This document shows, piece after piece, positions 24,803 through 44,690 of a stretch of 64,000 nucleotides of DNA (positions within the stretch are counted from its first letter, which is position 1; every line of letters starts with the position of its first letter). The DNA comes from Candidatus Omnitrophota bacterium (lineage in GTDB: Bacteria > Omnitrophota > Gorgyraeia > Gygaellales > Profunditerraquicolaceae). The notes under the pieces are model-generated. The model saw only the letters and a list, made by a program, of their open reading frames with translations, was not told the origin of the DNA and ran no database searches. The stretch is from contig JAQUQW010000001.1 in the NCBI GenBank assembly GCA_028716245.1, positions 232,793 to 296,792 on the forward strand, written 5' to 3'. The position numbers and the translations under genes are program-made.

Positions 24803-24869
24803 ATGAATTGACATAACCGGTTAATCATGATAGAGTTATATAAATAACAACACAAAAAAGGAGGGTAAT

Positions 24870-25547: not shown

Positions 25548-25572
25548 TGTATTTGGTTCTTACCTAAGAAAT

Positions 25573-25608: not shown

Positions 25609-25618
25609 AAAGCAGAAT

Positions 25619-25960
25619 ATGATTAAGGTCAAGCGAATTTATGAGCAGCCAGCCAAAGACGATGGTTTTAGGGTCTTGGTTGATCGTCTCTGGCCAAGGG
25701 GTATGAGTAAAGAGAAGGCAAGAATTGATCTTTGGTTAAAAGACATTGCTCCCAGAGATAACTTGAGAAAATGGTTTGCGCATGATCCAGAAAAATGGGC
25801 CATATTTAAGCAGAAGTATTTTAATGAGCTTAGCAGTAAGAAGACCGTTATTGGTGAAATCATGAAAAGAGCTAAAAACGGCGTTACACTATTATATGCG
25901 GCTAAAGACGATCAGTATAATAATGCGCAAGCGTTAAAAGAATACATTGAAGAAAATTAA
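25619..25960 (+). CDS. DUF488 (YeaO-like) family protein
   Basis: [60 protein letters not shown] matches the DUF488 N-terminal consensus. Confidence 0.7.
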
Positions 25961-27368: not shown

Positions 27369-27577
27369 TATTAAAAGTAGAGACGCGAAAATTTGTATAA
27401 CAATATGAGCAATAAAGAGATTACAAAAAACAAGGTTTTTGTCCGCACTTTTGGATGGCCGATGGGGGCAGTATTATACGACTATCGTACCGTATTTGAG
27501 CAGGATTTGGTGATAAGGAAACCATAAAAATAACCGAATGCAAGCGATTCTGGTGTATTGACTAGAACTGGTTAAAA

Positions 27578-28921: not shown

Positions 28922-29183
28922 GGCTATGAAAAAAGTTTTCATTCGCAATTTTGGCTGACCGATGGATACCTTATAGACGGATTATGGAGAGGGTAACGGA
29001 GGTTGCGTTGAGCTTGGTTTAGTGTGGCTGTTTTGAGGTAAATTTGAAGAGTGTGGGCGCAAAGAAAAAGGTCAGGAGAAGGCAGAAATAAGGCTTGACA
29101 GAAGCGGTTTTGTAAGGTATATTTCTATTGGATCACGATGAGAGGCAAGCCAAAGGGTTCCGTCCCGCGGTAATGCCTCTTCT

Positions 29184-29669
29184 TCATTTATACCGCAGTT
29201 TATCCTTCAAGCCATTCATAAAAAGCATATCTGGGGCAAATTCGCGCAGAAGAGAAGAGTATTTAAGCTGGTTAGGTATGATTAGCCGCTTTAATTTGCC
29301 TTGTTTCTTAAGATGCTTAATCAGACAGTAGCAATCCCCATCCCCGGTAACGATGACGGCCTTGTCGTAGTTAGGATATTCCAGCATAGCATGCAGCACT
29401 AATTCTGCATCCGTATTACCTTTTACTTTCCCATCTGGTAGACGTAAGGTAGGTTTGAAGATCAAGATATAACCTTTTTGTTGCAGAGAGGTATAAAGGC
29501 TTTGGTTAGTAGGAACAAAGCCTATGAAAATAAAAGCCTTCGTTATATCAAGCGTGTCTTTTAAATACTGCCTGAATCTTTTAAAATCCAATTCCCAGCC
29601 CTGGTCCCGGATAGCTAGGTTAAGATTCTGGCTGTCTATGAAAGCATAATTATTTTCGTTTTGGTTCAT
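29184..29669 (-). CDS. NYN-domain (LabA-like) nuclease-fold protein
   Basis: MNQNENNYAFIDSQNLNLAI...AVIVTGDGDCYCLI matches the NYN/LabA signature. It is the only convincing minus-strand gene in the window. Confidence 0.65.
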   Translation of the reverse strand: MNQNENNYAFIDSQNLNLAIRDQGWELDFKRFRQYLKDTLDITKAFIFIGFVPTNQSLYTSLQQKGYILIFKPTLRLPDGKVKGNTDAELVLHAMLEYPNYDKAVIVTGDGDCYCLIKHLKKQGKLKRLIIPNQLKYSSLLREFAPDMLFMNGLKDKLRYK

Positions 29670-30149
29670 GTGATTATTTTATACCTTTTCAATTATCTGT
29701 CAACCCAAATTAAAATCTTAGGAAATGAAACTATTTAAGAGCATTACTAATGTTATAAAGTGGATAAAAAATGATTGATTCCAGGTCTTTGGAAGAGGAT
29801 AATATAACCTTAGAATCACAACCTGAAGGGGGGTGGGAGTAATGAGCAAATTTATTGCTCATCATCTGAAACAGCCCCTGCCTTCTCGCGCGTAGGGCCC
29901 GGAAACTCTGGCTAATACTCTGGCTGGACTCCGGATAACTTGAAACGAAGGATTCCATTGGGTTGTGGTAATGAAGGGTTGGCTCTTGGCCCGGGAAACC
30001 GGAACCCAAAGGTGATGGTTCTGCTTTAGGGATCTGCAGAGATAAAAAGGCAAAGCAAGCCAGGCGGAGGATAACCTTAGCTGAGTATAGCGAAGGTCCA
30101 CCGCTTAACCCTTCCCATTATTTTATTAGATAAATTAAAGGAGGTTGCT

Positions 30150-30371
30150 GTGTCTGAATTAAAAATAGTTAAGATTGTTTTTGCGAATTCGCCTAACCTT
30201 TGGCATTTCGTAACGTTTAATTCCGGAGAGCATGAAACAGAAGTGGTTGGGGATCGGCACGACATAGATGTAGAGGTTATGATCCCGGGAACTGAAAAGC
30301 TTGAGAATGTAGAAAGTATAGCTCGGGATAAGGCTGAGCGTTTCATCAAAGAATTAGCCAAAACTCTCTAA
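30150..30371 (+). CDS. Hypothetical protein (73 aa)
   Basis: GTG start with RBS AAAGGAGG. No recognisable family. Confidence 0.4.
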   Translation: MSELKIVKIVFANSPNLWHFVTFNSGEHETEVVGDRHDIDVEVMIPGTEKLENVESIARDKAERFIKELAKTL

Positions 30372-30566
30372 ACTATTTAGCAGGAGATAATGCCATAGGT
30401 GGCTGATTTATTATGAGATACCCGAAGGCGAAAGAAAAGGTCTATCTAAATCCGAAGTCGGAATTTCCCAATCTCCGCTTAAAGTCAAGTACAAAGAGCA
30501 GGGGTATTTTGTATTCCCGCAAGAAAAAGTAAGCTGCTTTCTCTAATAATTCTCTAATAATTCTAC

Positions 30567-30595
30567 TTGACAAGTAGCAAGTGATGTGTTAAACT
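30567..30595 (+). promoter_or_regulatory. Sigma-70-like promoter, TTGACA-17-TAAACT. It would give a near-leaderless transcript of the excisionase-like gene.
   Basis: Consensus -35 with a 17-nt spacer. The -10 ends 9 nt before the ATG at 30605 and there is no SD. Confidence 0.5.
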
Positions 30596-30604
30596 AATAC
30601 CAAG

Positions 30605-30781
30605 ATGGAAAATAAAACTAAATTGTATACATCAGAAGAAGCGGCCAAGAGGCTTGGCATTACTCGGCAGGGATTAGCTTATCTTGTAAAAGAAGGAAAG
30701 ATTAAGCCAGTAGAGCATATTGAGAGTAAGTATAAATTTTTCTCGGAAGAAGAAATATATAAATATTTGGCAGAGAAGTAG
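30605..30781 (+). CDS. Excisionase/MerR-superfamily HTH DNA-binding protein (58 aa)
   Basis: MENKTKLYTSEEAAKRLGITRQGLAYLVKEGKIKP... is the HTH_17/Xis-like pattern. Not in the ORF track (<60 aa). Confidence 0.55.
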   Translation: MENKTKLYTSEEAAKRLGITRQGLAYLVKEGKIKPVEHIESKYKFFSEEEIYKYLAEK

Positions 30782-30829
30782 ATTTTTTTACCCCGAAACT
30801 TTACAAGGCGCAAGTAAAAGGAGGTGGTT

Positions 30830-31012
30830 ATGGTAAGAGAAATCGTAGATCTTGAAACTATAGCGTAGCGCCTAAAATACAGTGTTAAGTATTTGCAAAA
30901 CGACTGGCCCAAACTTCTGCCTGGGGTACGGCCGCTTAAGCTTAAGGCAAATTGCAGAAGAATATTATTCTTTTGGGACGATATCGAGAAATTGCTTTTA
31001 AAGGAAAAATAA
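30830..31012 (+). pseudogene. Second excisionase-like HTH ORF interrupted by an in-frame TAG after codon 12
   Basis: RBS GGAGGTGG. MVREIVDLETIA*RLKYSVKYLQNDWPKLLPGVRPLKLKANCRRILFFWDDIEKLL parallels the intact paralog upstream. Confidence 0.45.
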
Positions 31013-31024
31013 GAGGAGGTGATT

Positions 31025-31228
31025 ATGGCAATGAAAAGATTGGCAGATCGAACATCGGAGGACTGGAAGGAAGCGGAAAAAATAGCTAAATTGTGGCAGT
31101 TAGAAGTGGAGAATCCTCAGCTTTTTGAAGCTCTACAGGATCCGTTTGCTCGTTTCGTTGGATTAACAGTTTATAGAGTAAGAAAAATTTTAAGGTTAGT
31201 GACATTCGGGCGTTGCTGCAAAATATAA
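31025..31228 (+). CDS. Hypothetical protein (67 aa)
   Basis: RBS AGGAGG lies 5 nt before the ATG. No recognisable family. Confidence 0.4.
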   Translation: MAMKRLADRTSEDWKEAEKIAKLWQLEVENPQLFEALQDPFARFVGLTVYRVRKILRLVTFGRCCKI

Positions 31229-31250
31229 ACATAATCAAAAGGAGGAAGTT

Positions 31251-31457
31251 ATGGCTAAAAAACAGATAAGTAATTTAGACATCGATCCAGCTTTAAACGA
31301 AATAGAACGCGTGAATAAAAGCATATTCTTTATTGCCGGCGCATTACCTGAGTATCCGCATGACGGCGGTATGGAAGAGTTAAGCATGATACTGGAATGT
31401 CTTTCGGATAGAGCCCAAAAAGCTATCGAAGAGATCAAAGTAACAGCGGGGCTCTAA
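31251..31457 (+). CDS. Hypothetical protein (68 aa)
   Basis: RBS AAAGGAGGAAG. No recognisable family. Confidence 0.4.
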   Translation: MAKKQISNLDIDPALNEIERVNKSIFFIAGALPEYPHDGGMEELSMILECLSDRAQKAIEEIKVTAGL

Positions 31458-31484
31458 TTAGACGGAAGCATAAGGTTGAGTAAG

Positions 31485-32024
31485 ATGGAGAGAATAAAGA
31501 TGAAGATAGCACTATATTGCAGGGTATCGAAAAATGATGAATCACAGGACCCGGGTAATCAGATTAATCCCTTAAGAGACTATGCCCGGGCCCTCGGGGG
31601 AGAAATTACGCATGAGTATGTTGATATGTCTTCTGGCAGCAATGGCGATCGGAAAGAGTTTCTTAAGATGTTTGATGATGCAGATAAGCGAAAATTTGAC
31701 CTGTTGCTTATTTGGTCGCTTGATAGGTTAAGTAGAGAGGGCATATCAAATACCCTTGGCTATATTGAGCGTCTTAGAAAGAACGGAGTTGCTTTAAGAT
31801 CTCTGCAGGAATCGTGGGTTGATACGAATGATGGGCCCGGGGAAGTAATGATCGCAGTCCTTGCTTGGGTGGCGAAGCAAGAGAGAAAGCGGATCGTAGA
31901 GCGTACTAAAGCAGGCCTTGAGCGCGCAAGAAAAGACGGCAAAAGATTAGGTAGACCGAAAGGCAAGAAAGACAGTAAGCCAAGAAGGAAATCAGGTTAT
32001 CTTTTGAGGTATCATAAAAGATAA
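31485..32024 (+). CDS. Small serine recombinase (resolvase/invertase catalytic domain)
   Basis: IALYCRVSKNDES (catalytic Ser) and ...LLIWSLDRLSREG... are present. The basic C-terminus has no obvious HTH. Start alternatives are 31476, 31485 and 31500. Confidence 0.75.
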   Translation: MERIKMKIALYCRVSKNDESQDPGNQINPLRDYARALGGEITHEYVDMSSGSNGDRKEFLKMFDDADKRKFDLLLIWSLDRLSREGISNTLGYIERLRKNGVALRSLQESWVDTNDGPGEVMIAVLAWVAKQERKRIVERTKAGLERARKDGKRLGRPKGKKDSKPRRKSGYLLRYHKR

Positions 32025-32086
32025 CGAAGTGATATAATAATAAACATGAGATTTCTCTAAAGCATCAAAAATAGTAGTATGATAAA

Positions 32087-32290
32087 ATGACGTATAAAGA
32101 CATTAGGGAGTTCCTAAAGAAACCTACTATAAGGAAAATTCTTTTTTTCCTGTTAGCAGCTATCTTGTTAAGATGGGCAATAAGCTCGGGAACAGCTAAA
32201 TTAAGCAGGTCCTTGTATCGTATAGAAGATTCTTTAAATCAAATCGATAATTCATTGGTCGATATAAATCGAGCAATACTTTTGAAATAG
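32087..32290 (+). CDS. Small hypothetical membrane protein (67 aa)
   Basis: It has one TM helix. Confidence 0.35.
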   Translation: MTYKDIREFLKKPTIRKILFFLLAAILLRWAISSGTAKLSRSLYRIEDSLNQIDNSLVDINRAILLK

Positions 32291-32358
32291 TAAGTTTTCC
32301 CCATATTATCAGAGAAAAAAGACGAGATTACGAAGAAGGTGAGAGAAGGGTTAAAGGA

Positions 32359-33399
32359 ATGCCAAGGAATAGCCGGTATTTGAACCCAACAGTCTGGGGG
32401 GAGATAGTTGAACGTCGCCCCGTTAACTATCCTAAAAAGATAGAAAACAAGATTGCTTCACATTTTCTACCAGACCAGGAAGAATCCGCATTGCAGGAGA
32501 CTAGAGAGTGCGTTTCTCTTTTGGCTGGTAGATTATCTTCAAGTATAGGTTCAAAAAAGGCAACCCCAGAAGAAGTAAATAAACTCGCTGATAAGCTTTT
32601 CTGTGAACTGGATATTGGCCTTAACGATAAACAGAAAAATAACCTCAAGAATTTAATTAAGAATTCACTATCTCAGGAGAGTACATTCGGGAAGGAAATA
32701 GATACTTGGGTTAAAGAAGCAGCACTAAAGGCGATAAAAATCGCGTCCCAAACAAAAACATCTTCATCTATAAAAGAAACAAAAGTAGACTTATCATTAA
32801 TCAGTAAAAGAGCTAAAATTGAAGATTTCTTTTCGGAGAATATAGTAGGTGCTTATAAAGATCCGTTAACCCTCAAACGCACAGAAAGTATTTCTCGATT
32901 TAAGAGATTATATGAGAGTATACAGTCTTTAGAGAAGGAATTAGAGTTTTTCTTGCAACAATCCTCCCACCCAGATACAATTCAACTTAAAAAAGAATTC
33001 CTATGGTTTCCTTATTCATCATTCCCTGAATACGCCAAATCTCTTGGCAGTCAACCTTACACCAATATAACATTACAAGCAGTGGATGATTCAATCTATC
33101 GTCTCAAAATAATATGTGGTAAGCTCATAGATGATCCTGGTAAACCCGGTATAGGTCACCCTGCCATTTTTAAAACTGTTTATGGTTTAGCTGATGTCTG
33201 GAAGAAATATACAGGGAAAGAACCAACCCTTATTAATTATCCTGATTACAGTAAAGGTCCGACTCATGGCCCATTCCTTGATTATCTCAAAGAATCTATT
33301 GAATCCGTTATTCCTTTAGAGAAACATATAAGTCTCCGTAATATCGCCAAAGAAGTCATTTCTCACCGCAAACGTATGGCGAAAACCTCTCCAAAATAG
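32359..33399 (+). CDS. Hypothetical protein (346 aa). Between aa 69 and 128 it carries a ~60-aa module paralogous to one in the 982-aa protein.
   Basis: The segment EEVNKLADKL..LNDKQKNNLKNL...KEAALKAIK aligns with aa 381-439 of ORF 36551-39499. Confidence 0.5.
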   Translation: MPRNSRYLNPTVWGEIVERRPVNYPKKIENKIASHFLPDQEESALQETRECVSLLAGRLSSSIGSKKATPEEVNKLADKLFCELDIGLNDKQKNNLKNLIKNSLSQESTFGKEIDTWVKEAALKAIKIASQTKTSSSIKETKVDLSLISKRAKIEDFFSENIVGAYKDPLTLKRTESISRFKRLYESIQSLEKELEFFLQQSSHPDTIQLKKEFLWFPYSSFPEYAKSLGSQPYTNITLQAVDDSIYRLKIICGKLIDDPGKPGIGHPAIFKTVYGLADVWKKYTGKEPTLINYPDYSKGPTHGPFLDYLKESIESVIPLEKHISLRNIAKEVISHRKRMAKTSPK

Positions 33400-33523
33400 C
33401 CACAAAAAACACCATTATCTAAGATTGAAAGAATTAATTATAATTTAGCCGTGATGATTGAATAAATCAAAACGGTTTTTTTATTTAGAACTCTTCTAAG
33501 TTTTAAACTGGTAGGAGAATCGA

Positions 33524-33733
33524 ATGAAAAAAGAGAAGCGAATCAAGAATAGAACGAGCGTAGAAAGCATTCTGGCAGAAGCGGGTTTCTACGGCCTGAC
33601 TGAAAAAGACCTTGCTAACAGAGAAAAATTGGATGAGGTCTGTATCCGTCTCAATGCAGATGTTCAACTCAAAAAGAAGCATCAACCATTATATTTCGCC
33701 CAAATGTCCTCTAAACCTGTAGTAGGTGGTTAA
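33524..33733 (+). CDS. Hypothetical protein (69 aa)
   Basis: ORF with RBS GGTAGGAG. Confidence 0.35.
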   Translation: MKKEKRIKNRTSVESILAEAGFYGLTEKDLANREKLDEVCIRLNADVQLKKKHQPLYFAQMSSKPVVGG

Positions 33734-33734
33734 T

Positions 33735-34238
33735 ATGCAAACAGTGCAAGAGCGGAAATATTATTATAAATCAAAACTCGCATTAGTCAGAGATGCGGAA
33801 ATAAGTGACGTATTCCAGTTGGCAAGCAATGTGCGTGAAGCGGATATCCGAGAGATATGGAAATCACACCATATGACTCCAGAGACAGCTCTTCTGGGTG
33901 GGTTCCAAGAATCTGAATTATGTTTTACCATAGAGCGCAACGAAAAGGCGATCGCAATGCTGGGAATTTGCCCTCAGACTTTACTTGGCAATTCTGCAAT
34001 CATCTGGCTTCTGGCTTCTCCGGAATTGGAGAAAATACAAAGAGCCTTCATAAAGCGTTCAAGATATTTTATAAAAGGAATGCTTCAACGCTACCCCATG
34101 TTAGAGAACTGGGTAGACATGCAGAACGTTCAGTCTATTAAATGGCTCCGCTGGTGCGGGGCCAAGATAGAAGAACCAAAACCTTATGGTATCGAAGGCA
34201 AGCTATTTTGTTATTTCTATTTTAGGAGGACATTATAA
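33735..34238 (+). CDS. Hypothetical protein (about 167 aa)
   Basis: The ATG at 33735 follows GGTGG. No recognisable family. Confidence 0.45.
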   Translation: MQTVQERKYYYKSKLALVRDAEISDVFQLASNVREADIREIWKSHHMTPETALLGGFQESELCFTIERNEKAIAMLGICPQTLLGNSAIIWLLASPELEKIQRAFIKRSRYFIKGMLQRYPMLENWVDMQNVQSIKWLRWCGAKIEEPKPYGIEGKLFCYFYFRRTL

Positions 34239-34903
34239 TGTGTGTTTTTGCCGCGGCAATACCGATAGCAACTGCTTTCGCAACAAGCGCAGCAGGTGTC
34301 ACTACGGCCGTAGCGGGAACAGCCGGGATGACCGCTGCCGCAGCAACAGCAGCTAACTTAACATTAGCGGCAGCAGGTTTAGCCGCTGCAAGCGGAGGTT
34401 TATCGGCCTACGGTGCGTACCAACAAGGCCAGTCTCAAGACAAATATTACAAATATTTAGCCGACCAAAACGCCCGCGAAGCAGAAGCAGCGGTAAAAAC
34501 TGCAGATCAGCAAACAACTATACTGCAGAATGAGGCAGCCCAAAAAAGTAAAGAATTAGCAGGAGATATCAAGACTGTTAAAGGTGCTCAGAAAGCGGCC
34601 ATGGGGGCCTTGGGGATCTATGGGGTCACAGCTGACGACATCTTAGGAGACACCACAAACAAAGCTAAGCTTGATGCTGCCAACATCCGCTACAATGCTG
34701 ACATTCAGTCCTGGGCTGTAAAAAAAGAGGCGGCCGAAAAGGGGTGGGCATTGAATAGTCAGGGCAACCTATTTAGAGCGGCTGGCCAACAAGCAAAAAC
34801 AGCTTCATATTTAAACATAGGTACCACTTTGCTAGGGACTGCCGCATCGATAACGGGAATAGACGCATTTAACAAACGCTGGTACCCAGGTAAATTATAT
34901 TGA
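34238..34903 (+). CDS. Hypothetical Ala/Gly/Thr-rich protein with a hydrophobic N-terminus (221 aa). It may be a phage internal/ejection-type protein.
   Basis: N-terminus MCVFAAAIPIATAFATSAAGVTTAVAGTAGMTAAAATAANLTLAAAGLAAASGG followed by a Q/K/A-rich region. The function call is by composition only. Confidence 0.35.
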   Translation: MCVFAAAIPIATAFATSAAGVTTAVAGTAGMTAAAATAANLTLAAAGLAAASGGLSAYGAYQQGQSQDKYYKYLADQNAREAEAAVKTADQQTTILQNEAAQKSKELAGDIKTVKGAQKAAMGALGIYGVTADDILGDTTNKAKLDAANIRYNADIQSWAVKKEAAEKGWALNSQGNLFRAAGQQAKTASYLNIGTTLLGTAASITGIDAFNKRWYPGKLY

Positions 34904-34913
34904 GAGAAATAAC

Positions 34914-36389
34914 ATGAGTATAAAAGTAGTTCCATACGAAAGACAGATTAATAGAGTAACCCCGAGCATATCGGCGCCTCAAGAATTAAGACCGCCCCCG
35001 GGAGCCTTTGGAACAGACGTTGCCGAAGCAACTACTAAACTTGGCGAGACAGGGATGAAGATAGCCAGTCTTATAATTCAAAGAGCACAGGAACGTCAAA
35101 AAGAATTAATGGTAAGGGATAACCTGAATAAAGATACTGCATTTGGTCAAACGATGATGGATGTTCAATACAATAATGAATTAGATGATAGTGGTAAGCC
35201 TAAGGGATTACTAAACCGAAAATTAGAACAAGTTCATGGGATAACCCAGGAATTCAATCAGACATATTATACAATGAGAAAGCAACTCCTTGATGGTGTT
35301 AAAGATCCGGAGCAGCAAGATGCTTTAGCCAAAATGCTTGATTCCAGATTTGAGTCTATTCAAAGTAGGGTAGCCAATCATGAACGTCAGCAAACGGATG
35401 AGAGTATCAAGGTTGCTCACGAATCCAGCCAAGTTCTCCAGGAAAATGATGCTGCACAACTGCGAGACACTCCATCGTTGATTAATGCAATAGGTAAAGC
35501 TGTAGTTTTCAATGACGATTATAATCGGTTTATGGGCTATGACGAGAATACCGCACAAGTAAAGAACGGCGAGGTAGCAACTAAAATAGTAAAATCAGCG
35601 GTATTGGCTACTTTCAATACAAATGGCCTTCTGCCGGCGCAAAGACTTTTAAATGATGTGCAAGATAGGATTCCAAAATCTGCTTTCGATGATTTAAGTA
35701 AACAAATCGAGATAGACGCGAAGCAAACTACTGAACGGGCGAGATTCCAAGCAATGGTTGCTCAGGATCAGACTGAATCGGGTTTGATAGATAAATACTT
35801 TAAAGGCGAGCTTACCAGAGACGAGGTTAAACAACTCCACTTTAATAAAAAAATATCCGATGGATTTGCAACGACGATGATGAATAATCTGAATAGTTTA
35901 CAAAAAATAGGGGCAAAAACCAAAGCAAGTACTTTTAATGATATTGCGGAGATGATGGTTGACACAACAAAGAAGCCAGCAGATATCAGGATGAAACTTT
36001 TGCAAAAAAACGCTACTGGTGAATTAACAGATAATGACTTTCAGGTTTTGTATACTTTCAATCAAAGCGTAACCAAAGATACAGTTGACAAATCCCTACC
36101 TAAACGTACCTGGTTACAGCGGTTATTTAATAACGGTAAAGATACTGGATTAAGGCAGGAAGTAATAACCGATATGTTCAAGCAATATATGCAAAGAGTA
36201 AACACTGGCGAAGATCCGGCAAGGGCAGTAAGCGAAATAATCTCTACTCATCTGGACAATCATTTAGCAGAAGAAGCAAAGAAACCTAATAGGCAATATG
36301 CTGTTAATCCGGCCACAAAACAAAAGATATATTCTGAAGATGGCGGATTGACTTGGTATGACGAAAAAACTAATAAGCCGATAAAATAA
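34914..36389 (+). CDS. Hypothetical protein (491 aa)
   Basis: Long predicted-helical, charged protein. No recognisable family. Confidence 0.45.
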   Translation: MSIKVVPYERQINRVTPSISAPQELRPPPGAFGTDVAEATTKLGETGMKIASLIIQRAQERQKELMVRDNLNKDTAFGQTMMDVQYNNELDDSGKPKGLLNRKLEQVHGITQEFNQTYYTMRKQLLDGVKDPEQQDALAKMLDSRFESIQSRVANHERQQTDESIKVAHESSQVLQENDAAQLRDTPSLINAIGKAVVFNDDYNRFMGYDENTAQVKNGEVATKIVKSAVLATFNTNGLLPAQRLLNDVQDRIPKSAFDDLSKQIEIDAKQTTERARFQAMVAQDQTESGLIDKYFKGELTRDEVKQLHFNKKISDGFATTMMNNLNSLQKIGAKTKASTFNDIAEMMVDTTKKPADIRMKLLQKNATGELTDNDFQVLYTFNQSVTKDTVDKSLPKRTWLQRLFNNGKDTGLRQEVITDMFKQYMQRVNTGEDPARAVSEIISTHLDNHLAEEAKKPNRQYAVNPATKQKIYSEDGGLTWYDEKTNKPIK

Positions 36390-36550
36390 AATGTTTGGCC
36401 AAGAAACCGAATTAATATGACACACCTTTATCCCTTAGATGACTGGATAGAACATAAACTTGAAGGGACTGGATGTGTGTGCGAGCCGAGACTTGAGATA
36501 GAAGACGGAGAAATGATAGTGATACATAACGCAGCAGACGGAAGAGAAAA

Positions 36551-39499
36551 ATGTCCATACCCGCTGGTTTTGAATTAGAGGAACAGGCAGCAGTTACCCC
36601 GGAAGCCTCAGGAGTAGAAACGGCCACGGCATCTTTGCCTTCTGGTTTTGTTCAGGAAGATAAGGTTATCCCCGAAATTAGACAGGCGCCTCAATCCGGA
36701 ATGTTTGATAAGATGATAAATTTCTTTAAAGACCCTGAAAGAGATGTTGCAAAAGCACAGAATATCTATGCTTTATCGGATGTTACGGGATTACCCTTAA
36801 GCGAAGTAAATAAGAATTATGAAGTATTGCGCCGTTCCGTAAAAGTTACCGGCATTACTCCTGATTTGGATAGAAAAGAATTTATGGGGATGGCTATGCT
36901 TCCTGCAGTGGCCGCAGGTGCGGTAACTAATCCAATAGGCACAGCTGCTGGATTGATTGCTTTCGGGGCCTTGGATAAGGCAATCCCTACTGATAAGCTC
37001 ATAAATAATTTAAAAGAACAAGGAATTAGCGACGAGGTAACTACGACCATAGAATTGGCCGACTTTATCGGTAAGGCTATGATTGTGGGCGGTGTATTTA
37101 ATAAAGCCCCTAAATTAGCAGAGGGATTTTTAAGACATAAAATTACCGGCTATAAAATGCCAAATACTATAAATTTATCTGCCGAGCAAGTAAGAGATAT
37201 ATATCAAACAGGTAGGTTAACTACTCCTGAGCAGCAATCTTTATTCGGTAGTTTGGGATTAAATAGTTATGATACGCGTGGGGCATTAGAACACGGGATA
37301 AATATCAATATGCCGGCAGAAAAGATTGTTACATTAACAGATAAGCCTTATTGGGCTAAAGTTAAGGGTATTTTTGGGGCCGAGCCCGCTGTTGAAACAA
37401 GAGTAGATATAGCAGGAAAACCCATCCAGGCCCCAGCGGGTTTAATTGAAGGTAAAGTTGAAACGCCTATACCTGCCATAAAACCGCCTGATTTATCCAC
37501 CGAGCAAAGCAAAATAGATTTTATGGCCCAGAAGATCAATGAACATAAAGCCCTTTCTACTGAAGAAATTTATAACCGCGCAGAGGTATTAAGTAGGAAT
37601 ATGGAAAATTGGACGGAAGAGCAGGGATTAGAAGCCGAGGTTCTTAATAGAGAGTTAAACCGGCGCGAAGCTAAAGAGCCAATAAAAATATCCGATGAAG
37701 AAGTAGATGAACTTACCGATAAACTTTCTGCGAAATTGGATGTTACTCTTACCGAAGACCAAAAAAATAACCTGGAGGATCTCTCCAGAGAGATGCTTGC
37801 GCAGGATAAAGTATCAGGAGAAAAAGTAGATAAGAGATATAAAGAGGCGGCATTAAAGGCGATAAAAGAAAAAAACATCATTACGGGGAAACCGCCAATA
37901 GAGCCTCCAAAGGTCATAGAAGGGCAACCACAACAACCCTCTGGTGATCCCGTCCAGAAAGTTATCTCTGTACTTAAGGAAGCTAAATCAGTAAGAGGAA
38001 CACAGGAAACTCTCTATGCTAAAGCCCGCGCTCAGAAGTTCGCCAAGATGCTGGCGGTAGGGAAAAAGGTAAGAGGGGAAAAAGGTTATTATGCACAATT
38101 AGGAGCGTTGAAGGGTGAGTTGCCTAAAGCCGAATTTGAGGCGATCCGTAATAAGCTTACTCAAGAAGACATAGATATTCTTTTTAATATGGTTAAGGAT
38201 AGCCCAAAAATAGGCGAATGGGATAAATTATCAGCCAGGGAAGGCCTTGGAAAGTTATTCGGAGAATATGGCGGCAAGGTCCCTACGGAGAACGAAGTAT
38301 CTTTGCTTAATAAAGTATTCGGTGAGGAATTTACAAAAGCTATTTTAGAAAAGAAACCTTTATTTGAGAAAGTAAAATATGTTTTGAATCAGACAATAAA
38401 CATTCCTAAATCCATCATGGCTTCTTACGATTTATCTGCTCCGTTTAGACAGGGGATATTTTTAATTGGAAAACCTAAACAATTCTGGGGTTCATTTAAG
38501 CGTATGTTTGGGGCCTTTAAGAGCGAAGTCGCGTTTAACGCAATCCAAGACACAATTATTAAAGACCCTGATTTTCAATTAGCCCGCGACAGCAAGCTTT
38601 CTCTTACGGACATGGATGTTTTACTCGGCGAAAGAGAAGAGGCATTTTTATCAAGTTGGGCTGAAAAAATACCTCTTGTCGGGATAGGTATTAAGGCCTC
38701 TAATCGGGCCTATGTAGGTTTTCTTAATAAATTAAGATTTGATGTTTTTAAGGATTTAGTAGATAAGGCAGAATTATCTGGACTTAAAGCACGAGAGAAT
38801 AGGGATTTATCAATGGCGATAGCAGATTTTGTTAATAACGCTACCGGCAGAGGAACGCTTCCGGGCGGGTTACAAAAGGCATCAGTAACACTTAATTCTT
38901 TTTTCTTCTCTCCGCGGCTCGTTATGTCAAGGATAAATCTCCTTAATCCTGTTTATTATATTAAGCAGGACCCTTTTGTCAGAAAGGAAGCCTTAAAATC
39001 TCTGTTGGCTTTTTTAGGATTCGGGGTAACCGTTTTGACTTTAGCAAAGATGGCAGGATCAGAGGTTGGCACAGATCCCAAGAGTTCAGATTTTGGTAAG
39101 GTAAAGATAGGTAATACTCGCATCGATGTCTGGGGTGGTTTTCAGCAATTATCTGTAATGGCCTCTCGGATTATAACTGGCAAGATTGTCAGTTCTACCA
39201 CAGGCAAGGAGATGACTTTAGGCGAAGGCTATAAGCCGATGACAAGGGCTGATATTATTCAGCACTTTATCGAATCAAAAGAATCTCCAGTAGCCTCGTT
39301 CATTACTTCTTTATTAAAGGGCCAGGATGCAACCGGACAAAAGATAGATATACCAAAAGAGATAGGACAAAGATTCGTTCCAATGGTTATTCAAGATATG
39401 TACGATATTTTGCAGGAAGCGCCCGGGTTATTGCCAGTTTCTTTATTGGGAATATTTGGAGTGGGGATTCAGACTTATAAACAAGGAACTTATCGGTAA
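36551..39499 (+). CDS. Large hypothetical protein (982 aa) with C-terminal TM segments. It shares a module with ORF 32359-33399.
   Basis: Largest ORF in the element. The C-terminal hydrophobic stretch is LLAFLGFGVTVLTLAKMAG. No recognisable catalytic motifs. Confidence 0.5.
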   Translation: MSIPAGFELEEQAAVTPEASGVETATASLPSGFVQEDKVIPEIRQAPQSGMFDKMINFFKDPERDVAKAQNIYALSDVTGLPLSEVNKNYEVLRRSVKVTGITPDLDRKEFMGMAMLPAVAAGAVTNPIGTAAGLIAFGALDKAIPTDKLINNLKEQGISDEVTTTIELADFIGKAMIVGGVFNKAPKLAEGFLRHKITGYKMPNTINLSAEQVRDIYQTGRLTTPEQQSLFGSLGLNSYDTRGALEHGININMPAEKIVTLTDKPYWAKVKGIFGAEPAVETRVDIAGKPIQAPAGLIEGKVETPIPAIKPPDLSTEQSKIDFMAQKINEHKALSTEEIYNRAEVLSRNMENWTEEQGLEAEVLNRELNRREAKEPIKISDEEVDELTDKLSAKLDVTLTEDQKNNLEDLSREMLAQDKVSGEKVDKRYKEAALKAIKEKNIITGKPPIEPPKVIEGQPQQPSGDPVQKVISVLKEAKSVRGTQETLYAKARAQKFAKMLAVGKKVRGEKGYYAQLGALKGELPKAEFEAIRNKLTQEDIDILFNMVKDSPKIGEWDKLSAREGLGKLFGEYGGKVPTENEVSLLNKVFGEEFTKAILEKKPLFEKVKYVLNQTINIPKSIMASYDLSAPFRQGIFLIGKPKQFWGSFKRMFGAFKSEVAFNAIQDTIIKDPDFQLARDSKLSLTDMDVLLGEREEAFLSSWAEKIPLVGIGIKASNRAYVGFLNKLRFDVFKDLVDKAELSGLKARENRDLSMAIADFVNNATGRGTLPGGLQKASVTLNSFFFSPRLVMSRINLLNPVYYIKQDPFVRKEALKSLLAFLGFGVTVLTLAKMAGSEVGTDPKSSDFGKVKIGNTRIDVWGGFQQLSVMASRIITGKIVSSTTGKEMTLGEGYKPMTRADIIQHFIESKESPVASFITSLLKGQDATGQKIDIPKEIGQRFVPMVIQDMYDILQEAPGLLPVSLLGIFGVGIQTYKQGTYR

Positions 39500-39661
39500 A
39501 CAGGTGGCGGTAGCTTTATTATATGTTGGAGTAGCCAGATGATACCCAAAATTAAAGTAAGCTTAACCAGGAATTCTTTAGACCATATTTTTTGTAGTAG
39601 AAGCTTAATTTTCATCACGCTTTTAATATAGCAGGGATCCTTAATTATTGCAATAAAGAAA

Positions 39662-39928
39662 ATGAGTAGAGCCAAAGAAAAAGTAGGAAAACGTAAGTCA
39701 GTAATTGAGAAAGTTCGCATATGCTGCCCGGGCAAGATTTCTGCGCTTGAGCGATCTAAGCTTCATGCGCAAAACCTGCTTAACAAAGTAATTCCTTTTG
39801 AGATTTGGAGCACAACTGAGAAAAGGACGGAATCAGAGATTAAAGTATATTGGTTAGTAGTAAACGGACTTAAGAAGATTACCAAAGAAGGGCAGCCAGA
39901 GGAGTTAAAATGTCACGGCAGAAATTAA
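39662..39928 (+). CDS. Hypothetical protein (88 aa)
   Basis: ORF overlapping the terS start. No recognisable family. Confidence 0.35.
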   Translation: MSRAKEKVGKRKSVIEKVRICCPGKISALERSKLHAQNLLNKVIPFEIWSTTEKRTESEIKVYWLVVNGLKKITKEGQPEELKCHGRN

Positions 39929-40347
39929 CTTCACGACAAAAGAAGTTTGTTGATTTATACGAAGGTAACGCTACTAAGGCGGCTATTAAGGCTGGATATT
40001 CAAAGAGAACGGCTTATTCAATAGGCCAGGAGAACCTGAAGAAACCTGAAGTCATAAAAGCTCTGCAGGAGCGTGAAAAAAAGGAAACAGGTCCCTTAAT
40101 AGCTGACAGGATAGAACGACAGCAGTTTTGGACTTCTGTATTAAGAGGCAAGATAGGAAAGGTTAGGAAAGTTAAGATGAATGACAGACTGAAAGCTTCA
40201 GAATTGCTGGGGAAGAGTGAAGCTGATTTTACGGAAAAGGTTTCGCATGAAGGCTTAAATAACCTGGCTGAGGAACTCAAAGCAGCTCGCTTAAGGAGCG
40301 GCCAAACTCAGCCATGCCAGACATCGCGGTCCACGAAGAACAAATAA
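39910..40347 (+). CDS. terS: Phage terminase small subunit (Terminase_2/P27 family)
   Basis: LTSRQKKFVDLYEGNATKAAIKAGYSKRTAYSIGQENLKKPEVIKALQE matches the Terminase_2 N-terminal HTH consensus. Confidence 0.8.
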   Translation: MSRQKLTSRQKKFVDLYEGNATKAAIKAGYSKRTAYSIGQENLKKPEVIKALQEREKKETGPLIADRIERQQFWTSVLRGKIGKVRKVKMNDRLKASELLGKSEADFTEKVSHEGLNNLAEELKAARLRSGQTQPCQTSRSTKNK

Positions 40348-40395
40348 AATTAGAGAATCAGTATTAAAAAGAGAAGCGCGACAGAGAGAAATAAG

Positions 40396-40698
40396 ATGAA
40401 GAAAAGCACACCCACAAATAGCCCTAAAGTTTTTAGGTCAATAAGCCTCCAGCTGGCCGCAGCGCTCCTTACGGATATCTCCGAAGCGACCTTTATCGGT
40501 CTCGAAAACAACACCTTAGAAAAAGATAGAAAGGTAATCTTAATAGCTTACCCGGAGTCAGCGGAGCTCGGGTTCAAAAGGGTACTTGATGAGTTTGAGA
40601 GTAAGACTTTATGCGTAAACCTGTTTTATTATAACCGGAATCTTAATTTTCTTAGGGACCGGATATTCAACAGGAAGGTGGATAGAAAAATTGGCTAA
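40396..40698 (+). CDS. Hypothetical protein (100 aa)
   Basis: ORF only. Confidence 0.35.
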   Translation: MKKSTPTNSPKVFRSISLQLAAALLTDISEATFIGLENNTLEKDRKVILIAYPESAELGFKRVLDEFESKTLCVNLFYYNRNLNFLRDRIFNRKVDRKIG

Positions 40699-41299
40699 TC
40701 CACAGAAAGAAAACGGACATACCGATATCGCAAATGAGATAGTTGAAATCTTGGCAAGGATAAATTTCAGGCCTTATGAATCCCGTACGCTTTGGGCTCT
40801 TTGGCGGAAAACCTGGGGATGGCATAAAAAAGAAGACAAGATCAGCTTAACGCAATTTCAGGCATTAACAGGATTGGAAAGAAGACACCAGCATAAGGCA
40901 TTAAAGACACTTATCGAAAAAAATATCATTACCCGCAATACGGATAGCTATGTTGTAAGCTATAGTTTCCAAAAGGATTATACCCGTTGGAAAGTAGTGC
41001 TTAAACAAGCACCAGTTAGTGATGTTCTAAGTAGTGCATATTTGAGCACTACCCCAGTGCTTAAACAAGCACCAAAAGTAGTGCCTAAATCGGCACCCAC
41101 AAAAGAAAATAAAGAAACTATACAAAAGAAAGGTAATTTTTCTAATCATCTTTTAATTTTTAAAACCCAGATTATTCAATTAGCGGAGCAGTATTCCGGA
41201 AACATAGATCTAATTAAGCAGCATCTTTTTAAAGATGGCTATACTGAAAAGCAGATAGAGGAAGCCTTGAATAAGTATATTACTACAATTAGCAAATAA
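40691..41299 (+). CDS. Phage replication initiator, lambda O-like N-terminal domain protein
   Basis: HTDIANEIVEILARINFRPYESRTLWALWRKTWGWHKKEDKISLTQFQALTGLERRHQHKALKTLIEKNII matches Phage_rep_O. Confidence 0.8.
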   Translation: MANPQKENGHTDIANEIVEILARINFRPYESRTLWALWRKTWGWHKKEDKISLTQFQALTGLERRHQHKALKTLIEKNIITRNTDSYVVSYSFQKDYTRWKVVLKQAPVSDVLSSAYLSTTPVLKQAPKVVPKSAPTKENKETIQKKGNFSNHLLIFKTQIIQLAEQYSGNIDLIKQHLFKDGYTEKQIEEALNKYITTISK

Positions 41300-41374
41300 T
41301 CCTCCCAGCTAAGGTATAGGTATTTTGTAGGGAGGAAAGTAATAAAAACTAGGGTTAAATAAACGACCGATTAT

Positions 41375-41674
41375 TTGGTAAACATGGGAAAGATAAAAGG
41401 GCAATTAGAATACGAGAAGTTTAAAGAAAGCAAGCCGTTAACCCGGAAAGAGGCGATCTTGGCGCAATGTTATGTATGCAACGGGGAAGATGAGGGCGGT
41501 GAGGATTGCCATGGGTTAAGCTGTCCGTTATACCGATTTCACCCCTATAAGCAGGGGAAAGGTACTGTTGCGCCAAGAAAATCGATTCTACGCGCTGAAA
41601 GTGGCAGTTCTATGGCTTCTCAAGGCAAGGAAATGGCAGGTGTCGGGGTTAGTAGCTTAGTGGTGGCAATATGA
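41375..41674 (+). CDS. Small Cys-rich (zinc-finger-like) hypothetical protein
   Basis: CYVCNGEDEGGEDCHGLSCPLYRF. The alternative start is 41384. Confidence 0.4.
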   Translation: MVNMGKIKGQLEYEKFKESKPLTRKEAILAQCYVCNGEDEGGEDCHGLSCPLYRFHPYKQGKGTVAPRKSILRAESGSSMASQGKEMAGVGVSSLVVAI

Positions 41675-41901
41675 TTAAGGAAGCGATAATGACAGAGCGG
41701 GGATGGGATGCTTTAGAGATAAAGCTCAAGGCCCGCGGTCTATCTGGTCCGGAAATACAGGAGGCCCGGAAATCTTTTCAGGATGGCATAGAAACTTTGT
41801 GTAAAATGTTTTTACTGAACTGTTCAGTTGATAATAAACCTGTTGTTTAAGGTTGGATATTATTATATACTGATTCCCATAAAACGGCGTGAGGCGTTAG
41901 A

Positions 41902-43572
41902 ATGAGAGTTGCGTTATATACCAGAGTAAGTACGGAGGATCAGGCGCGCGAAGGTTTCTCTCTTGAAGTGCAGAGGACCTATCTTCTGCAACACGCGAGA
42001 AATTCCGGCTGGGAAGTTTTTTGCAGCATATCAGGCCAGGATGTTTATATGGATGATGGATATTCTGGCGGTACTATGGATCGGCCGGCATTGCAGAGGC
42101 TTCTATTTGACGCGCGTAATAAGCAGTTTGACCTGGTGTTGGTATATAAGCAGGATCGTTTGAGTAGGAAACTGAAGGACCTTCTGGCACTGCTTGAGGA
42201 ATTTGAGAATCTGGGTATAGGTTACAAATCAGCTACAGAACCATTCGATACTACGTCCAGCGCGGGCAAGATGGCAATACAAATGCTCGGCAGCTGTGCG
42301 GAGTTTGAACGGAATCGTCTCGTTGAACGCGTTTTCCCCGGGATGGTAGTCGGTGTTAATAAAGGACACTGGCAAGGCGCACGCTATGCGCCGTATGGAT
42401 ATCGCTATAACAAAGAGATTAAGAAACTGGAGATCTATCCGGAAGAAGCAAAGATTGTAAAAGAGATTTATGTTATGTATCTTGGTGGTAAGAGTACTTC
42501 ACAAATTGCCGGGCATTATTATGCTCTTGGGATTCCTTCAAGGCAAGGAGGGAAATTTTATAACAAGTTTATCTCTAATATCCTGCAAAATAAGGCGTAT
42601 TTAGGAATATTGGTATGGAATAAACGGCACTATGACACGAAAGCGAAGACTAAGAATGGAGATGGCAAAGGGTATCGGTACGTTAATAACGATTCGTCCA
42701 AGATAATAGAGGTGTCTAATACCCACGAGGCGATTATTACTCAAAAAGAATTCGATGAAGTTGCCAGGCTTCTTAAGCGTAACCGGACTAATAGCGTAGT
42801 TAGATTCAGAAATAACGTCTATCATTTATCTGGTATTTTGAAATGCAATGAGTGCGGAGGTAATTACCGCGGAATGACCGCGACTGTTAACCACCGGACC
42901 AAGGACCGGCGGCCGTGGTATAGGTGCTCTTCCAAAGGAGTGCCGTATATTAAATGTAGCAATAAATCAGTTACGGCAGACGCTATCAACAGACAGGTAT
43001 GGGATATTGTGGATGTGGTAGCGCGAAATTTACACGTCCTGGAGGCACTCGGAGATATGATTAAACTGAGCGCCTCTGAGCCTGAGCAGTTGTATGTGGA
43101 GCAGCTGGAAGAGAAAGAAACTCTCCTGCATAAAAACCTTGAGAAACAGAAGGGGCTTTATGAGGTATTCGCCTCTGATAGTATCAATCTTGAGATTTAC
43201 AAAGAGCGGGCCGAGATGTTACGGAACGAAGAGAAGAAGTTCAAGCAAGATATAAAAGCGGTTCAGTTAAAGATTCTGGAGAAAAGGAACGCGGTCGATC
43301 TGACGAAGGCGGCGCAGGACTTTCTTTTACGGCTGCGGAGCAATCCGAGTAATGTACAGATGGACTACCTGGTTAAAACCTTTATGCGGATTCTCTTTAA
43401 GTCTATCTATATTCAGAACCAGGAAATCGTGAAATTTGACCTTAATCAACCTTGGAAGATGTGTTACGAAGAAGGGACAAAATGGCTGAAAACAGAGCAA
43501 ATACAGGCAGTTCCGGAGGCAAAAGCCCGAAGAAGTTACGAGTGCTTTTGCGCACCTTCGGATGCCAGATGA
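41902..43572 (+). CDS. Large serine recombinase (integrase)
   Basis: N-terminal resolvase domain VALYTRVSTEDQ. A recombinase domain is present. The zinc ribbon is CNECGG...YRCSSKGVPYIKC. A coiled-coil C-terminus is present. 556 aa. Confidence 0.9.
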   Translation: MRVALYTRVSTEDQAREGFSLEVQRTYLLQHARNSGWEVFCSISGQDVYMDDGYSGGTMDRPALQRLLFDARNKQFDLVLVYKQDRLSRKLKDLLALLEEFENLGIGYKSATEPFDTTSSAGKMAIQMLGSCAEFERNRLVERVFPGMVVGVNKGHWQGARYAPYGYRYNKEIKKLEIYPEEAKIVKEIYVMYLGGKSTSQIAGHYYALGIPSRQGGKFYNKFISNILQNKAYLGILVWNKRHYDTKAKTKNGDGKGYRYVNNDSSKIIEVSNTHEAIITQKEFDEVARLLKRNRTNSVVRFRNNVYHLSGILKCNECGGNYRGMTATVNHRTKDRRPWYRCSSKGVPYIKCSNKSVTADAINRQVWDIVDVVARNLHVLEALGDMIKLSASEPEQLYVEQLEEKETLLHKNLEKQKGLYEVFASDSINLEIYKERAEMLRNEEKKFKQDIKAVQLKILEKRNAVDLTKAAQDFLLRLRSNPSNVQMDYLVKTFMRILFKSIYIQNQEIVKFDLNQPWKMCYEEGTKWLKTEQIQAVPEAKARRSYECFCAPSDAR

Positions 43573-44690
43573 ATGAGCGGGATTCAGAGGTGATCGGCGG
43601 TTTGCTCAAAAAATCGGGTTATCAAATCAGCGCAAGCGATAAAGAGGCGGATGTTATTATTTTTAACACCTGTTCAGTACGCAAGCACGCTGAAGACAGG
43701 GTGTGGAGCTTAATCGGCAGTTATAAGGGCTCTAAGATAATCGGCTTAGTTGGATGTATGGCCCAGAATTACAAAGAAAAAGCTTTTGAGCGGGATACCA
43801 ATATTAGTTTTGTTGTCGGACCGCAGGATATTGGGAAGATTCCGGAAGTGCTTGGTAAGATATTAAAAACAAGGGGACAGTCCCCGTCCGAGGACAGTCC
43901 CCTTTTATTGGAACGCAAGATTTGGGAGACAGATAGCATTAGCCGCCCCGAAGAAATTTATCATACTGAATTTTATCAGGATAAAAATCATGCCCATGTA
44001 GTTATTTCCGAAGGATGCTCTAATTTTTGTTCTTATTGCGTAGTGCCTTACGTGCGCGGGCCGTTGCGTCATCGTAGAAGTAAAGATATCCTGGTTGAGA
44101 TTCAGGCTGCCATTGCGCGGGGAATAACCAGGGTGACACTTTTAGGCCAGAATGTTAATGCCTATTTAGATGGGAAAATTAATTTTAATAAGTTGCTTGC
44201 GCAGGTTAACGGCCTTGGCGGCCTAAAGGAGTTTGATTTTTTTACCTCCCATCCTAAGGACGCCAATACGGATTCTTTTAAAGCAATCCGTGACCTGGAT
44301 AAATTAGTTAAGCGATTGCATTTACCGCTGCAGTCAGGCTCAGACAGGATTCTTAAATTAATGAATAGAGGGTATTCGGTAAAAGAATACTTGGATTTAA
44401 TCGATTCTTATCGTAAAATTGTTAAAGGCGGCTTGTTGACCACGGATATTATCGCAGGGTTTCCGACAGAGACTGAAAAAGAGTTTAAGGAAACTTACAA
44501 TCTGGTTAAAAAGATAGAGTTTAACGCGGCTTATCTTTTTAAGTATTCATCCCGGCCGGGAACGCAGGCGGAAAAAATTGGCGCAGACTTAAGCAAAGAA
44601 GAAAAAGAAAAACGGCATAAACAGATCCTGGATTTACAGAGGGATATCTCAAAAAAGTTAAGACAGAAACATGCAGATGGAAAAGAATAA
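43482..44690 (+). CDS. miaB: tRNA-2-methylthio-N6-dimethylallyladenosine synthase (radical SAM methylthiotransferase)
   Basis: MTTase N-terminus FGCQMNERDSE. Radical SAM CSNFCSYC and a TRAM domain are present. The start is ambiguous: ATG 43452 or ATG 43482. Both lie inside the 3' end of the integrase ORF, in another frame. Confidence 0.85.
   Translation: MAENRANTGSSGGKSPKKLRVLLRTFGCQMNERDSEVIGGLLKKSGYQISASDKEADVIIFNTCSVRKHAEDRVWSLIGSYKGSKIIGLVGCMAQNYKEKAFERDTNISFVVGPQDIGKIPEVLGKILKTRGQSPSEDSPLLLERKIWETDSISRPEEIYHTEFYQDKNHAHVVISEGCSNFCSYCVVPYVRGPLRHRRSKDILVEIQAAIARGITRVTLLGQNVNAYLDGKINFNKLLAQVNGLGGLKEFDFFTSHPKDANTDSFKAIRDLDKLVKRLHLPLQSGSDRILKLMNRGYSVKEYLDLIDSYRKIVKGGLLTTDIIAGFPTETEKEFKETYNLVKKIEFNAAYLFKYSSRPGTQAEKIGADLSKEEKEKRHKQILDLQRDISKKLRQKHADGKE

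Follow-up and report, generated by a model that had tools for sequence, protein, structure and literature searches.

A candidate satellite family with an ejectosome module, integrated in miaB of an uncultivated Omnitrophota bacterium

To our knowledge, the phage satellites described so far steal and sometimes reshape the capsids of their helpers, and none has been reported with internal core or ejection proteins. Here we examine a 14.6-kb element that lies at 28,958-43,564 of the window (by which we mean the whole 64-kb stretch of DNA that was analysed, part of contig JAQUQW010000001.1) and is integrated within codon 11 of miaB in an uncultivated Omnitrophota bacterium. Full-text searches of the literature turned up no satellite in Omnitrophota and none that carries internal virion or internal core proteins, ejection proteins or an ejectosome, and we present the element as a member of what may be a new family of satellites, one equipped with an ejectosome module. 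The Gram-negative phage-inducible chromosomal islands (PICIs) have much in common with it, namely a size of ~15 kb, site-specific integration, an AlpA/excisionase-type helix-turn-helix (HTH) gene heading a one-way operon, a replication initiator of their own, a terminase small subunit (TerS) of their own that redirects helper packaging, the lack of a virion set and a variable slot for accessory or defence genes. Unlike a PICI, the element has a large serine recombinase at its far end as opposed to a tyrosine integrase at the near end, does without a primase-helicase, carries four virion core genes, has a podophage as its presumed helper and belongs to a host in the phylum Omnitrophota. Neither part of the pairing by which PICIs are recognised, a tyrosine integrase and a primase/helicase module, was found in the element (Pfam gave no primase or helicase domain in its open reading frames, ORFs); one relative, L014, does have a tyrosine integrase.

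Capsid-forming PICIs (cf-PICIs) resemble the element in that the satellite contributes part of the virion, but they make the capsid and take helper tails, whereas the element brings no shell and only internal core/ejection proteins. The major capsid, portal and head-completion proteins that mark a cf-PICI were not detected in it. The PICI-like elements (PLEs) of Vibrio cholerae have a RepA_N-type initiator. Judged by their description, PLEs share the large serine recombinase with the element, which differs from them in its Phage_rep_O initiator, its type of helper and its Omnitrophota host. Among the reference satellites, a recombinase of this type is noted for PLEs alone (PMC9618062). The marine virion-encapsidated integrative mobile elements (VEIMEs) are known from metagenomes as elements of 5-25 kb that have TerS, replication genes and recombinases of the tyrosine and/or serine type (PMC9618062); compared by this description they are, like the element, environmental satellites with a recombinase, replication genes and TerS, and the terms internal virion, internal core and ejection are absent from the paper. 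The element itself has a recombinase with att sites, an empty site in a relative, its own initiator (by homology), a TerS without a terminase large subunit (TerL), and no capsid, portal or tail gene. It is an element that would work like a PICI-type satellite and stands outside the PICIs and cf-PICIs and, by their description, outside the PLEs.

The virion genes of the element are best compared with the internal core of phage T7, with which they share the gp13 and gp14 families, the gene order and, in related complete phages, the position after the nozzle gene. Unlike in T7, the block sits without capsid genes, and the proteins in the gp15 and gp16 positions, with 491 and 982 aa, fall short of the 747 and 1318 aa of their T7 equivalents. 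The genes of this block, with those for recombination, packaging and replication, are:

31476-32024, + strand: small serine recombinase (small resolvase); Pfam Resolvase 1.4e-35; resolvase catalytic domain and short basic tail
33726-34238, + strand: T7 gp13-type internal virion protein (170 aa); PF11090 at 27.1 bits (cut-off 25), PHROG 308 at 9e-38
34238-34903, + strand: T7 gp14-type internal virion protein (221 aa); PHROG 418 at 2e-12, PF24072 at 25.5 bits, under the cut-off of 27
34914-36389, + strand: 491-aa protein in the gp15 position; homologues lie between gp14 and the giant protein in podophage contigs L010, L012, L084 and L085
36551-39499, + strand: 982-aa protein in the gp16 position, following the gp15-position gene
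39910-40347, + strand: TerS; PF03592 Terminase_2 7e-21, PHROG 51 3e-26; no TerL alongside
40691-41299, + strand: Phage_rep_O (lambda-O-type) initiator; PF04492 4.5e-19
41902-43572, + strand: large serine recombinase (556 aa); Resolvase, Recombinase and Zn_ribbon_recom domains (Pfam)

Podophage contigs with a complete structural module (L010/L011, L012/L013, L084 and L085) carry counterparts of the core block in their full setting, among them more distant homologues of the 491-aa protein. There the genes run in the order Head-tail_con portal, scaffold, capsid, adaptor, nozzle, (gp13), gp14, a 450-560-aa protein, an 825-2271-aa protein and fibre-like proteins, which is the T7 order, and the block proteins of the elements are 44-76% identical to these counterparts, the 491- and 982-aa proteins of the window accounting for values of 44-74%. 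The gp13 protein of the window is 76% identical to the product of the gene beside the nozzle gene in L010 and has matches in 182 GenBank podophage records, while the gp14 protein, whose N-terminus MC.AAAIPIA resembles that of T7 gp14, is 70% identical to L010 gp14. The 982-aa protein shares 60-74% identity with an 829-aa protein whose gene follows the gp15-position gene in L012, and 31% with a 1582-aa protein of GenBank phage MW202497, and its counterpart in a related element (L016) carries Peptidase_M15. An AlphaFold2 (AF2) model of the 491-aa protein is all-helical (pLDDT 78) and had no significant Foldseek match in the PDB (best E = 0.19); among the non-significant rows the cyanophage A4 pre-ejectosome stood at rank 2 and the T7 ejectosome (7k5c) at rank 22. 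Sequence searches of the PDB with the 982-aa protein, a 346-aa protein of the element and a profile of the 491-aa protein returned nothing meaningful. DNA patches are also shared with the phages, comprising 127 nt of the L010 giant gene and the stretch after the 982-aa gene (L012), and podophage contig L012 comes from one and the same metagenome as elements L001 and L016.

An earlier note, made from the letters of the sequence, had guessed that the large proteins of this locus could be hijacked internal or ejection virion proteins, and the gp13-gp14-gp15-gp16 core block with its counterparts in complete podophages agrees with that guess. The same note saw no recognisable family in any of them, which needs correcting, as the 170- and 221-aa proteins are gp13 and gp14 and the 491- and 982-aa proteins have their podophage-contig counterparts. 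The small resolvase, the Terminase_2 TerS, the Phage_rep_O initiator and the 556-aa large serine recombinase it had named were all recovered by family searches, and the + strand ORFs at 30.1-43.6 kb are as it described; their co-orientation is nothing special, nearly every gene of the 64-kb window being on the + strand.

None of the element ORFs encodes a TerL, portal, capsid or tail protein by Pfam or PHROGs, and none of them belongs to a conjugation gene family in the same searches. When all ORFs of four phage contigs were compared with the 64-kb window by tblastn, the only matches were the gp13-16 block and TerS, and the absence of TerL, portal and capsid genes that the earlier note had reported was thus upheld by Pfam, PHROGs and tblastn. 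On phage contig L018 a 60% TerS homologue is found directly upstream of ORFs of 470 and 671 aa, which, read without a family search, are a putative TerL and portal. Inside the initiator gene of the element there are three 23-nt direct repeats at 40991-41097 (repeat family D3), and from their sequence these are candidate iterons or a candidate origin of replication.

Searches with the 982-aa, recombinase, TerS and 491-aa proteins added six distinct elements to that of the window, namely L001, L005, L008 (GCA_037134795.1), L014/L015, L016 and L083, which makes seven from Omnitrophota metagenomes. Their common order is HTH_17, small ORFs, small resolvase, a 260-380-aa protein, a ~70-aa protein, gp14, a ~490-520-aa protein and an 840-1780-aa protein, followed by a ~100-aa protein, a replication protein, small ORFs and the integrase; gp13 is present in the window member alone. 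No portal, capsid, tail or TerL gene was found in any of the seven (the L016 contig is incomplete). TerS is present in five of the seven, with a 77-aa remnant in L014 and the L016 contig stopping before the TerS position; in L014 it comes after the replication gene, and in the window, L001, L005, L008 and L083 its place is between the giant and the ~100-aa protein. The closest relatives of the window TerS that have a known context are other members (93% identity in L001, L005 and L008; 82% in L083), and the database matches at 83-86% are on ~1-kb contigs without context. The window and L083 have a replication protein of the O type and the other members one that is DnaD-like/replisome-organiser, and the family uses three different integrases or insertion sites. 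The miaB junctions are seen in the window and L008, and L016 has a matching miaB attL on a contig that ends before the integrase; L083 has a different large serine recombinase at a different site, which is empty in the window, and L014 has its tyrosine integrase at yet another site. As judged from these sequences, modules are exchanged as in other mobile elements.

The small resolvase is the most conserved gene of the family (tblastn identity 89-93% in L001, L008, L014 and L016; 94% identity to L083), with a ratio of nonsynonymous to synonymous substitution (dN/dS) of 0.03-0.04, and the large serine recombinase is 93-95% identical in L001, L005 and L008. Nei-Gojobori dN/dS values between members range from 0.03 to 0.28 for the resolvase, the gp15- and gp16-position genes, TerS and the large serine recombinase, the two large proteins having 0.09-0.19. 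When the window is compared with L008, dS is 0.23-0.94 in the element and saturated in the flanking host genes (71% DNA identity), indicating that the elements moved between hosts far more recently than the hosts diverged. By way of a side observation, the 89-94% identity of the small resolvase is found among members that are otherwise widely different, and its tail, by reading, is a short basic segment in place of the usual C-terminal HTH domain.

To define the ends of the element, its flanks were compared with an unoccupied miaB in Omnitrophota metagenome-assembled genome JAQURC010000002.1 (L082), from which the element is absent. The two flanks are 87-89% identical to it (23542-27368 and 43551-44960), and homology resumes at 43551. 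A direct-repeat search recovered no att sites because attL and attR share just 2 bp, and they were located by looking for TFGCQM, a motif of miaB, and by setting the locus against L008 and L082. The junctions are:

28926-29040, + strand: attL; native miaB 5′ remnant ATG..GGC (MKKVFIRNFG, 28926-28955), core TG at 28956-57, element P′ arm
43482-43600, + strand: attR; element-encoded miaB 5′ replacement MAENRANTGSSGGKSPKKLRVLLRTFG at 43482-43562, core TG at 43563-64, then native miaB
27405-27470, + strand: second miaB-5′/P′ junction, MSNKEITKNKVFVRTFG / TG / GCCGATGG..., more diverged and outside the element

The unoccupied site reads …CGCACTTTCGGC-TG-CCAGATGAATGAG… (attB, L082), the left junction at 28.96 kb …CGCAATTTTGGC-TG-ACCGATGGATACC… (attL) and the right junction at 43.56 kb …CGCACCTTCGGA-TG-CCAGATGAATGAG… (attR). 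When L082 and the two window junctions are aligned (alignment A4), TG is the sole sequence common to all three, with attL tracking attB to the left of it and attR tracking attB to the right. Flanks that swap around a shared TG only are the pattern expected of a serine recombinase with a 2-bp core, and the comparison of attL, attR and attB points to TG as the crossover core. It is part of the Cys codon in the conserved TFGCQMN motif at miaB codon 11. The P′ arm at attL is 77% identical to the L008 attL and 91% identical to that of L016. Exact-protein look-ups with the recombinase, the NYN protein of the left end and a host gene downstream returned no contigs, and hence no alternative junctions from the same sample.

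The right arm of the element provides a new, in-frame 27-codon miaB 5′ end, so that miaB remains whole, and the displaced native start stays at attL. This replacement and the final codons of the large serine recombinase gene share the same DNA in different frames, and such dual coding is also kept in L005 and L008. The recombinase ORF itself crosses the core, and in the integrated form it stops three codons past TG (43549-43572), whereas at an attP-like junction in L005 (L005 11380-11455) it is 25 codons longer; because the ORF spans the crossover, integration swaps the C-terminal tail of the enzyme. The earlier note had the recombinase abutting miaB, and the contact is real, though it is more than abutment with the crossover TG inside the miaB Cys codon. 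Its left end at 29,700 has to give way to the attL at 28,956, with a gene for an NYN-domain nuclease inside. The comparison with an empty site that it proposed has been made, with attL and attR defined against L082. The note held that the satellite reading would fall if a TerL, portal or capsid gene turned up or if the same block were chromosomal in all relatives without recombinases, and the reading came through both: no such gene was found and the block is not fixed in all relatives, the L082 site being unoccupied and members at three kinds of site carrying recombinases (again with the L016 contig ending before its integrase).

The second junction, at 27.46 kb, follows directly on a gene for a major facilitator superfamily (MFS) transporter and precedes one for a ClC channel (27578-28921), and its P′ arm resembles the L005 junction. 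We considered it as the attL of the element and demoted it to a relic, as it is the 28.96-kb junction that matches the attL of L008 and L016. It may be a relic attL from an earlier or tandem insertion of a related element.

Taken together, the element is probably an integrated member of an undescribed satellite family that parasitises T7-architecture podophages of Omnitrophota and has its own core/ejectosome and TerS, and it presumably depends on a helper. In the cycle we envisage, a helper podophage would infect or be induced, the HTH_17 regulator and recombinase would excise the element and the Phage_rep_O initiator would replicate it. The element TerS would then steer the helper TerL onto element DNA, the core proteins would be assembled on the helper portal within hijacked capsids, and the resulting particle would deliver the satellite DNA via an ejectosome of the satellite's own making. 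A further proposal, which we put forward tentatively as a possibility of its own, is that the satellite lineage swaps the DNA-ejection machinery of the helper for its own gp14/gp15/gp16-type core on a stolen portal and capsid. In T7, gp15 and gp16 control genome internalisation and the remaining genome is drawn in by transcription from leading-end promoters. A satellite lacks the leading-end promoters of its helper, and one likely reason for an ejectosome of its own would be DNA entry of a genome without the helper's leading-end signals; another would be competitive exclusion of the helper core proteins, as a form of interference. We also considered that the core had been miniaturised for a small capsid and rejected this, since the gp16-position proteins of the phages measure 825-2271 aa and those of the elements 841-1784 aa. 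With no consistent difference towards smaller proteins in the elements, a size-reduction rationale for carrying the core is unsupported.

If such a swap of the ejection machinery is true, what a parasite has to customise in a podophage virion would be the ejectosome and not the shell, perhaps so that a small foreign genome crosses the envelope without the entry signals of the helper, and Omnitrophota and T7-architecture helpers would each have their first described satellite family. TerS and ejectosome genes kept under purifying selection would imply a need in genome delivery or helper interference beyond current satellite models. The family also opens a way to study how phage, host and parasite interact in an uncultivated phylum. 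It supplies, besides, a well-defined att pair of a serine recombinase, in which the core is of 2 bp, the attP imitates the target gene and repairs it, and the ORF of the recombinase lies over the crossover.

Several points weigh against the element being a podophage satellite with its own ejectosome. No helper was identified, and neither TerS nor TerL matched a specific phage, leaving L010, L012, L084 and L085 as candidate helper relatives only; the helper phage with a cognate TerL that the earlier note proposed to look for was not found. Packaging and induction of the element are what we infer from its genes. The 491- and 982-aa proteins have no detectable similarity to T7 gp15 and gp16 (hhalign probability 0.2; BLASTP E = 1), and their ejectosome role is suggested by position and by the podophage-contig homologues. 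A genuine attP and the joint of a tandem array are equally possible readings of the attP-like junction in L005. A conserved 60-codon gene near the left end is interrupted by a TAG codon, and the window copy may be impaired in regulation or excision and no longer inducible; apart from this gene everything in the window copy is intact. The host, moreover, is uncultivated.

The order gp13-14-15-16 ... TerS fits the right part of a T7-type genome, and the element could be taken for the decaying remnant of a temperate T7-like prophage that lost capsid, portal, tail and TerL by deletion, the more so with a nonsense mutation in one conserved small gene and a relic junction 1.5 kb upstream. A remnant would hardly be expected in seven members that have the same reduced content with differing integrases and sites, nor with all large ORFs intact at dN/dS 0.03-0.28, att sites that are intact and a near relative with an empty site, and the small resolvase and the 346-aa protein have no tblastn match in the examined parts of L010 and L012. 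The elements are also much less diverged than their hosts, and since they moved more recently than the hosts diverged, prophage decay is ruled out as the main explanation; we regard it as largely refuted and very improbable. Even harder to credit is that the element is a highly unusual minimal virus or virus-like element with a full gene set, in which some of the unannotated ORFs encode capsid, portal and motor. Ten ORFs are without family and a length of 346 aa is roughly that of a capsid protein, but besides the gp15- and gp16-position proteins no unassigned ORF exceeds 346 aa, the 346-aa protein is predicted all-helical (in a low-confidence model), unlike an HK97-fold capsid, and the related complete phages carry ordinary portal and capsid genes. 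As far as we know, 346 aa is too short for any TerL or portal.

Of the alternatives, the one that deserves most attention is an integrative island that is not transduced and whose phage-derived core and TerS serve mainly against phages, poisoning podophage virions or blocking DNA entry and packaging. The left-end genes of the family are defence-like (NYN nuclease, ParE toxins, SLFN_AlbA_2), core proteins at 60-76% identity are close enough for co-assembly with the phage versions, and known satellites do interfere with their helpers. Yet TerS, replication initiator and excision system form a tool kit for being packaged, and an element that moves between dS-saturated hosts needs some vehicle, for which conjugation genes were not found. 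Interference and transduction can coexist, moreover, and a purely anti-phage island seems unlikely to us. We favour the transduced satellite that brings its own core proteins and TerS.

At the left end, between attL and the small resolvase, the element has cargo and small regulatory genes:

29184-29669, - strand: NYN-domain (LabA-like) nuclease gene, accessory cargo; Pfam NYN 1.6e-12, PADLOC NYN 2e-8
29700-30110, no strand: ORF-free, GC-richer stretch, without a + strand ORF
30150-30371, + strand: 73-aa ORF, no family; also called as a gene in the independent Logan assembly L007
30409-30535, + strand: 127-nt phage-like piece; 88% identity with an inner segment of the gp16-position gene (2271 aa) in podophage contig L010
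30567-30781, + strand: promoter-like site (TTGACA-17-TAAACT with TG) and HTH_17 gene (58 aa, excisionase/AlpA-like, 30605-30781)
30830-31012, + strand: conserved 60-codon gene, CAG->TAG at codon 13 in the window copy
31019-31457, + strand: small ORFs of 69 and 68 aa behind AAGGAGG Shine-Dalgarno sequences; repeat family D1; 68-aa ORF 71% identical in L016

The left-end cargo varies, with the NYN gene in the window and a ParE toxin or SLFN_AlbA_2 in other members, and the NYN protein was the only match when ten element proteins were run through PADLOC. The excisionase-like HTH gene with its promoter, already noted from the sequence, was confirmed (HTH_17 in Pfam, E 1.4e-8; PHROG excisionase, 1.6e-7), with the promoter-like site ending 9 nt upstream of the ATG, and the protein is 88-97% identical in L008 and L014. 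The 60-codon gene that follows is conserved in the five members that allowed a comparison and is intact in L008, L014, L016 and L083; the TAG of the window copy is at 30866-30868, and the identical TAG is present in Logan assembly L007. The ORF-free stretch showed some RNA folding at 29790-30110 (z = -2.4 on the + strand and -1.7 on the - strand) and no Rfam match. Rfam gave nothing relevant for the whole window at gathering threshold or for 28.9-30.65 kb at E <= 1, and a tRNA search of the 64-kb window found none. Within the ORF-free stretch just 30042-30121 has a counterpart, in L014, and the 127-nt L010-like piece sits between the 73-aa ORF and the HTH promoter.

The remaining small genes, and the 346-aa protein, are found between the small resolvase and the core block and around the TerS and replication genes:

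32087-32290, + strand: 67-aa hydrophobic protein, 70% identical in L014
32359-33399, + strand: 346-aa family-specific protein, no Pfam or PHROG match
33524-33733, + strand: 69-aa protein, weakly related to an internal gp14 segment; present in all members
39539-39631, + strand: 30-codon ORF, MIPKIKVSLTRNSLDHIFCSRSLIFITLLI, GGAG upstream
39662-39928, + strand: 88-aa protein, overlaps the TerS start; 63-84% identical in L001, L005 and L008
40396-40698, + strand: 100-aa protein, always before the replication gene; 66-84% identical in all members
41375-41850, + strand: Cys-rich 99-aa protein and 59-aa protein, 51-96% and 80-85% identical in other members

The region at 39.5-39.66 kb, which had been taken for noncoding, holds the 30-codon ORF, and this is intact with synonymous changes in L008, L005, L083 and phage contig L012 (alignment A5). 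Between the element and L012 its stretch is ~80-85% identical, an estimate from the same alignment, which exceeds the 75% (blastn) of the adjoining gp16-position gene.

Relatives of the 346-aa protein are few (6 in 5.8e9 proteins; 24 clusters in 1.84e9 representatives), and a profile search of the 1.84e9 representatives with the family, followed by Pfam on the matches, gave no functional clue. Its AF2 model, at pLDDT 47, is an all-helical prediction of low confidence. A 61-aa motif (…LTDKQKNNL…KEAALKAIK…; ~51% identity) is common to the 346-aa and 982-aa proteins, at 32530-32740 and 37685-37870. The 346-aa protein had no tblastn match in the examined part of phage contig L012, and the motif therefore appears to be missing from the 829-aa counterpart there.

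Outside the element, the region upstream of miaB is a variable spot. In L082 the interval from the MFS gene to miaB is occupied at 3507-6587 by three unrelated genes in place of the ClC gene of the window, and their products are of 276 aa (RhuM-like by eye), 205 aa and 370 aa. The MFS transporter region of the window (25947-27368) has a GC content of 0.50 vs about 0.41 around it.

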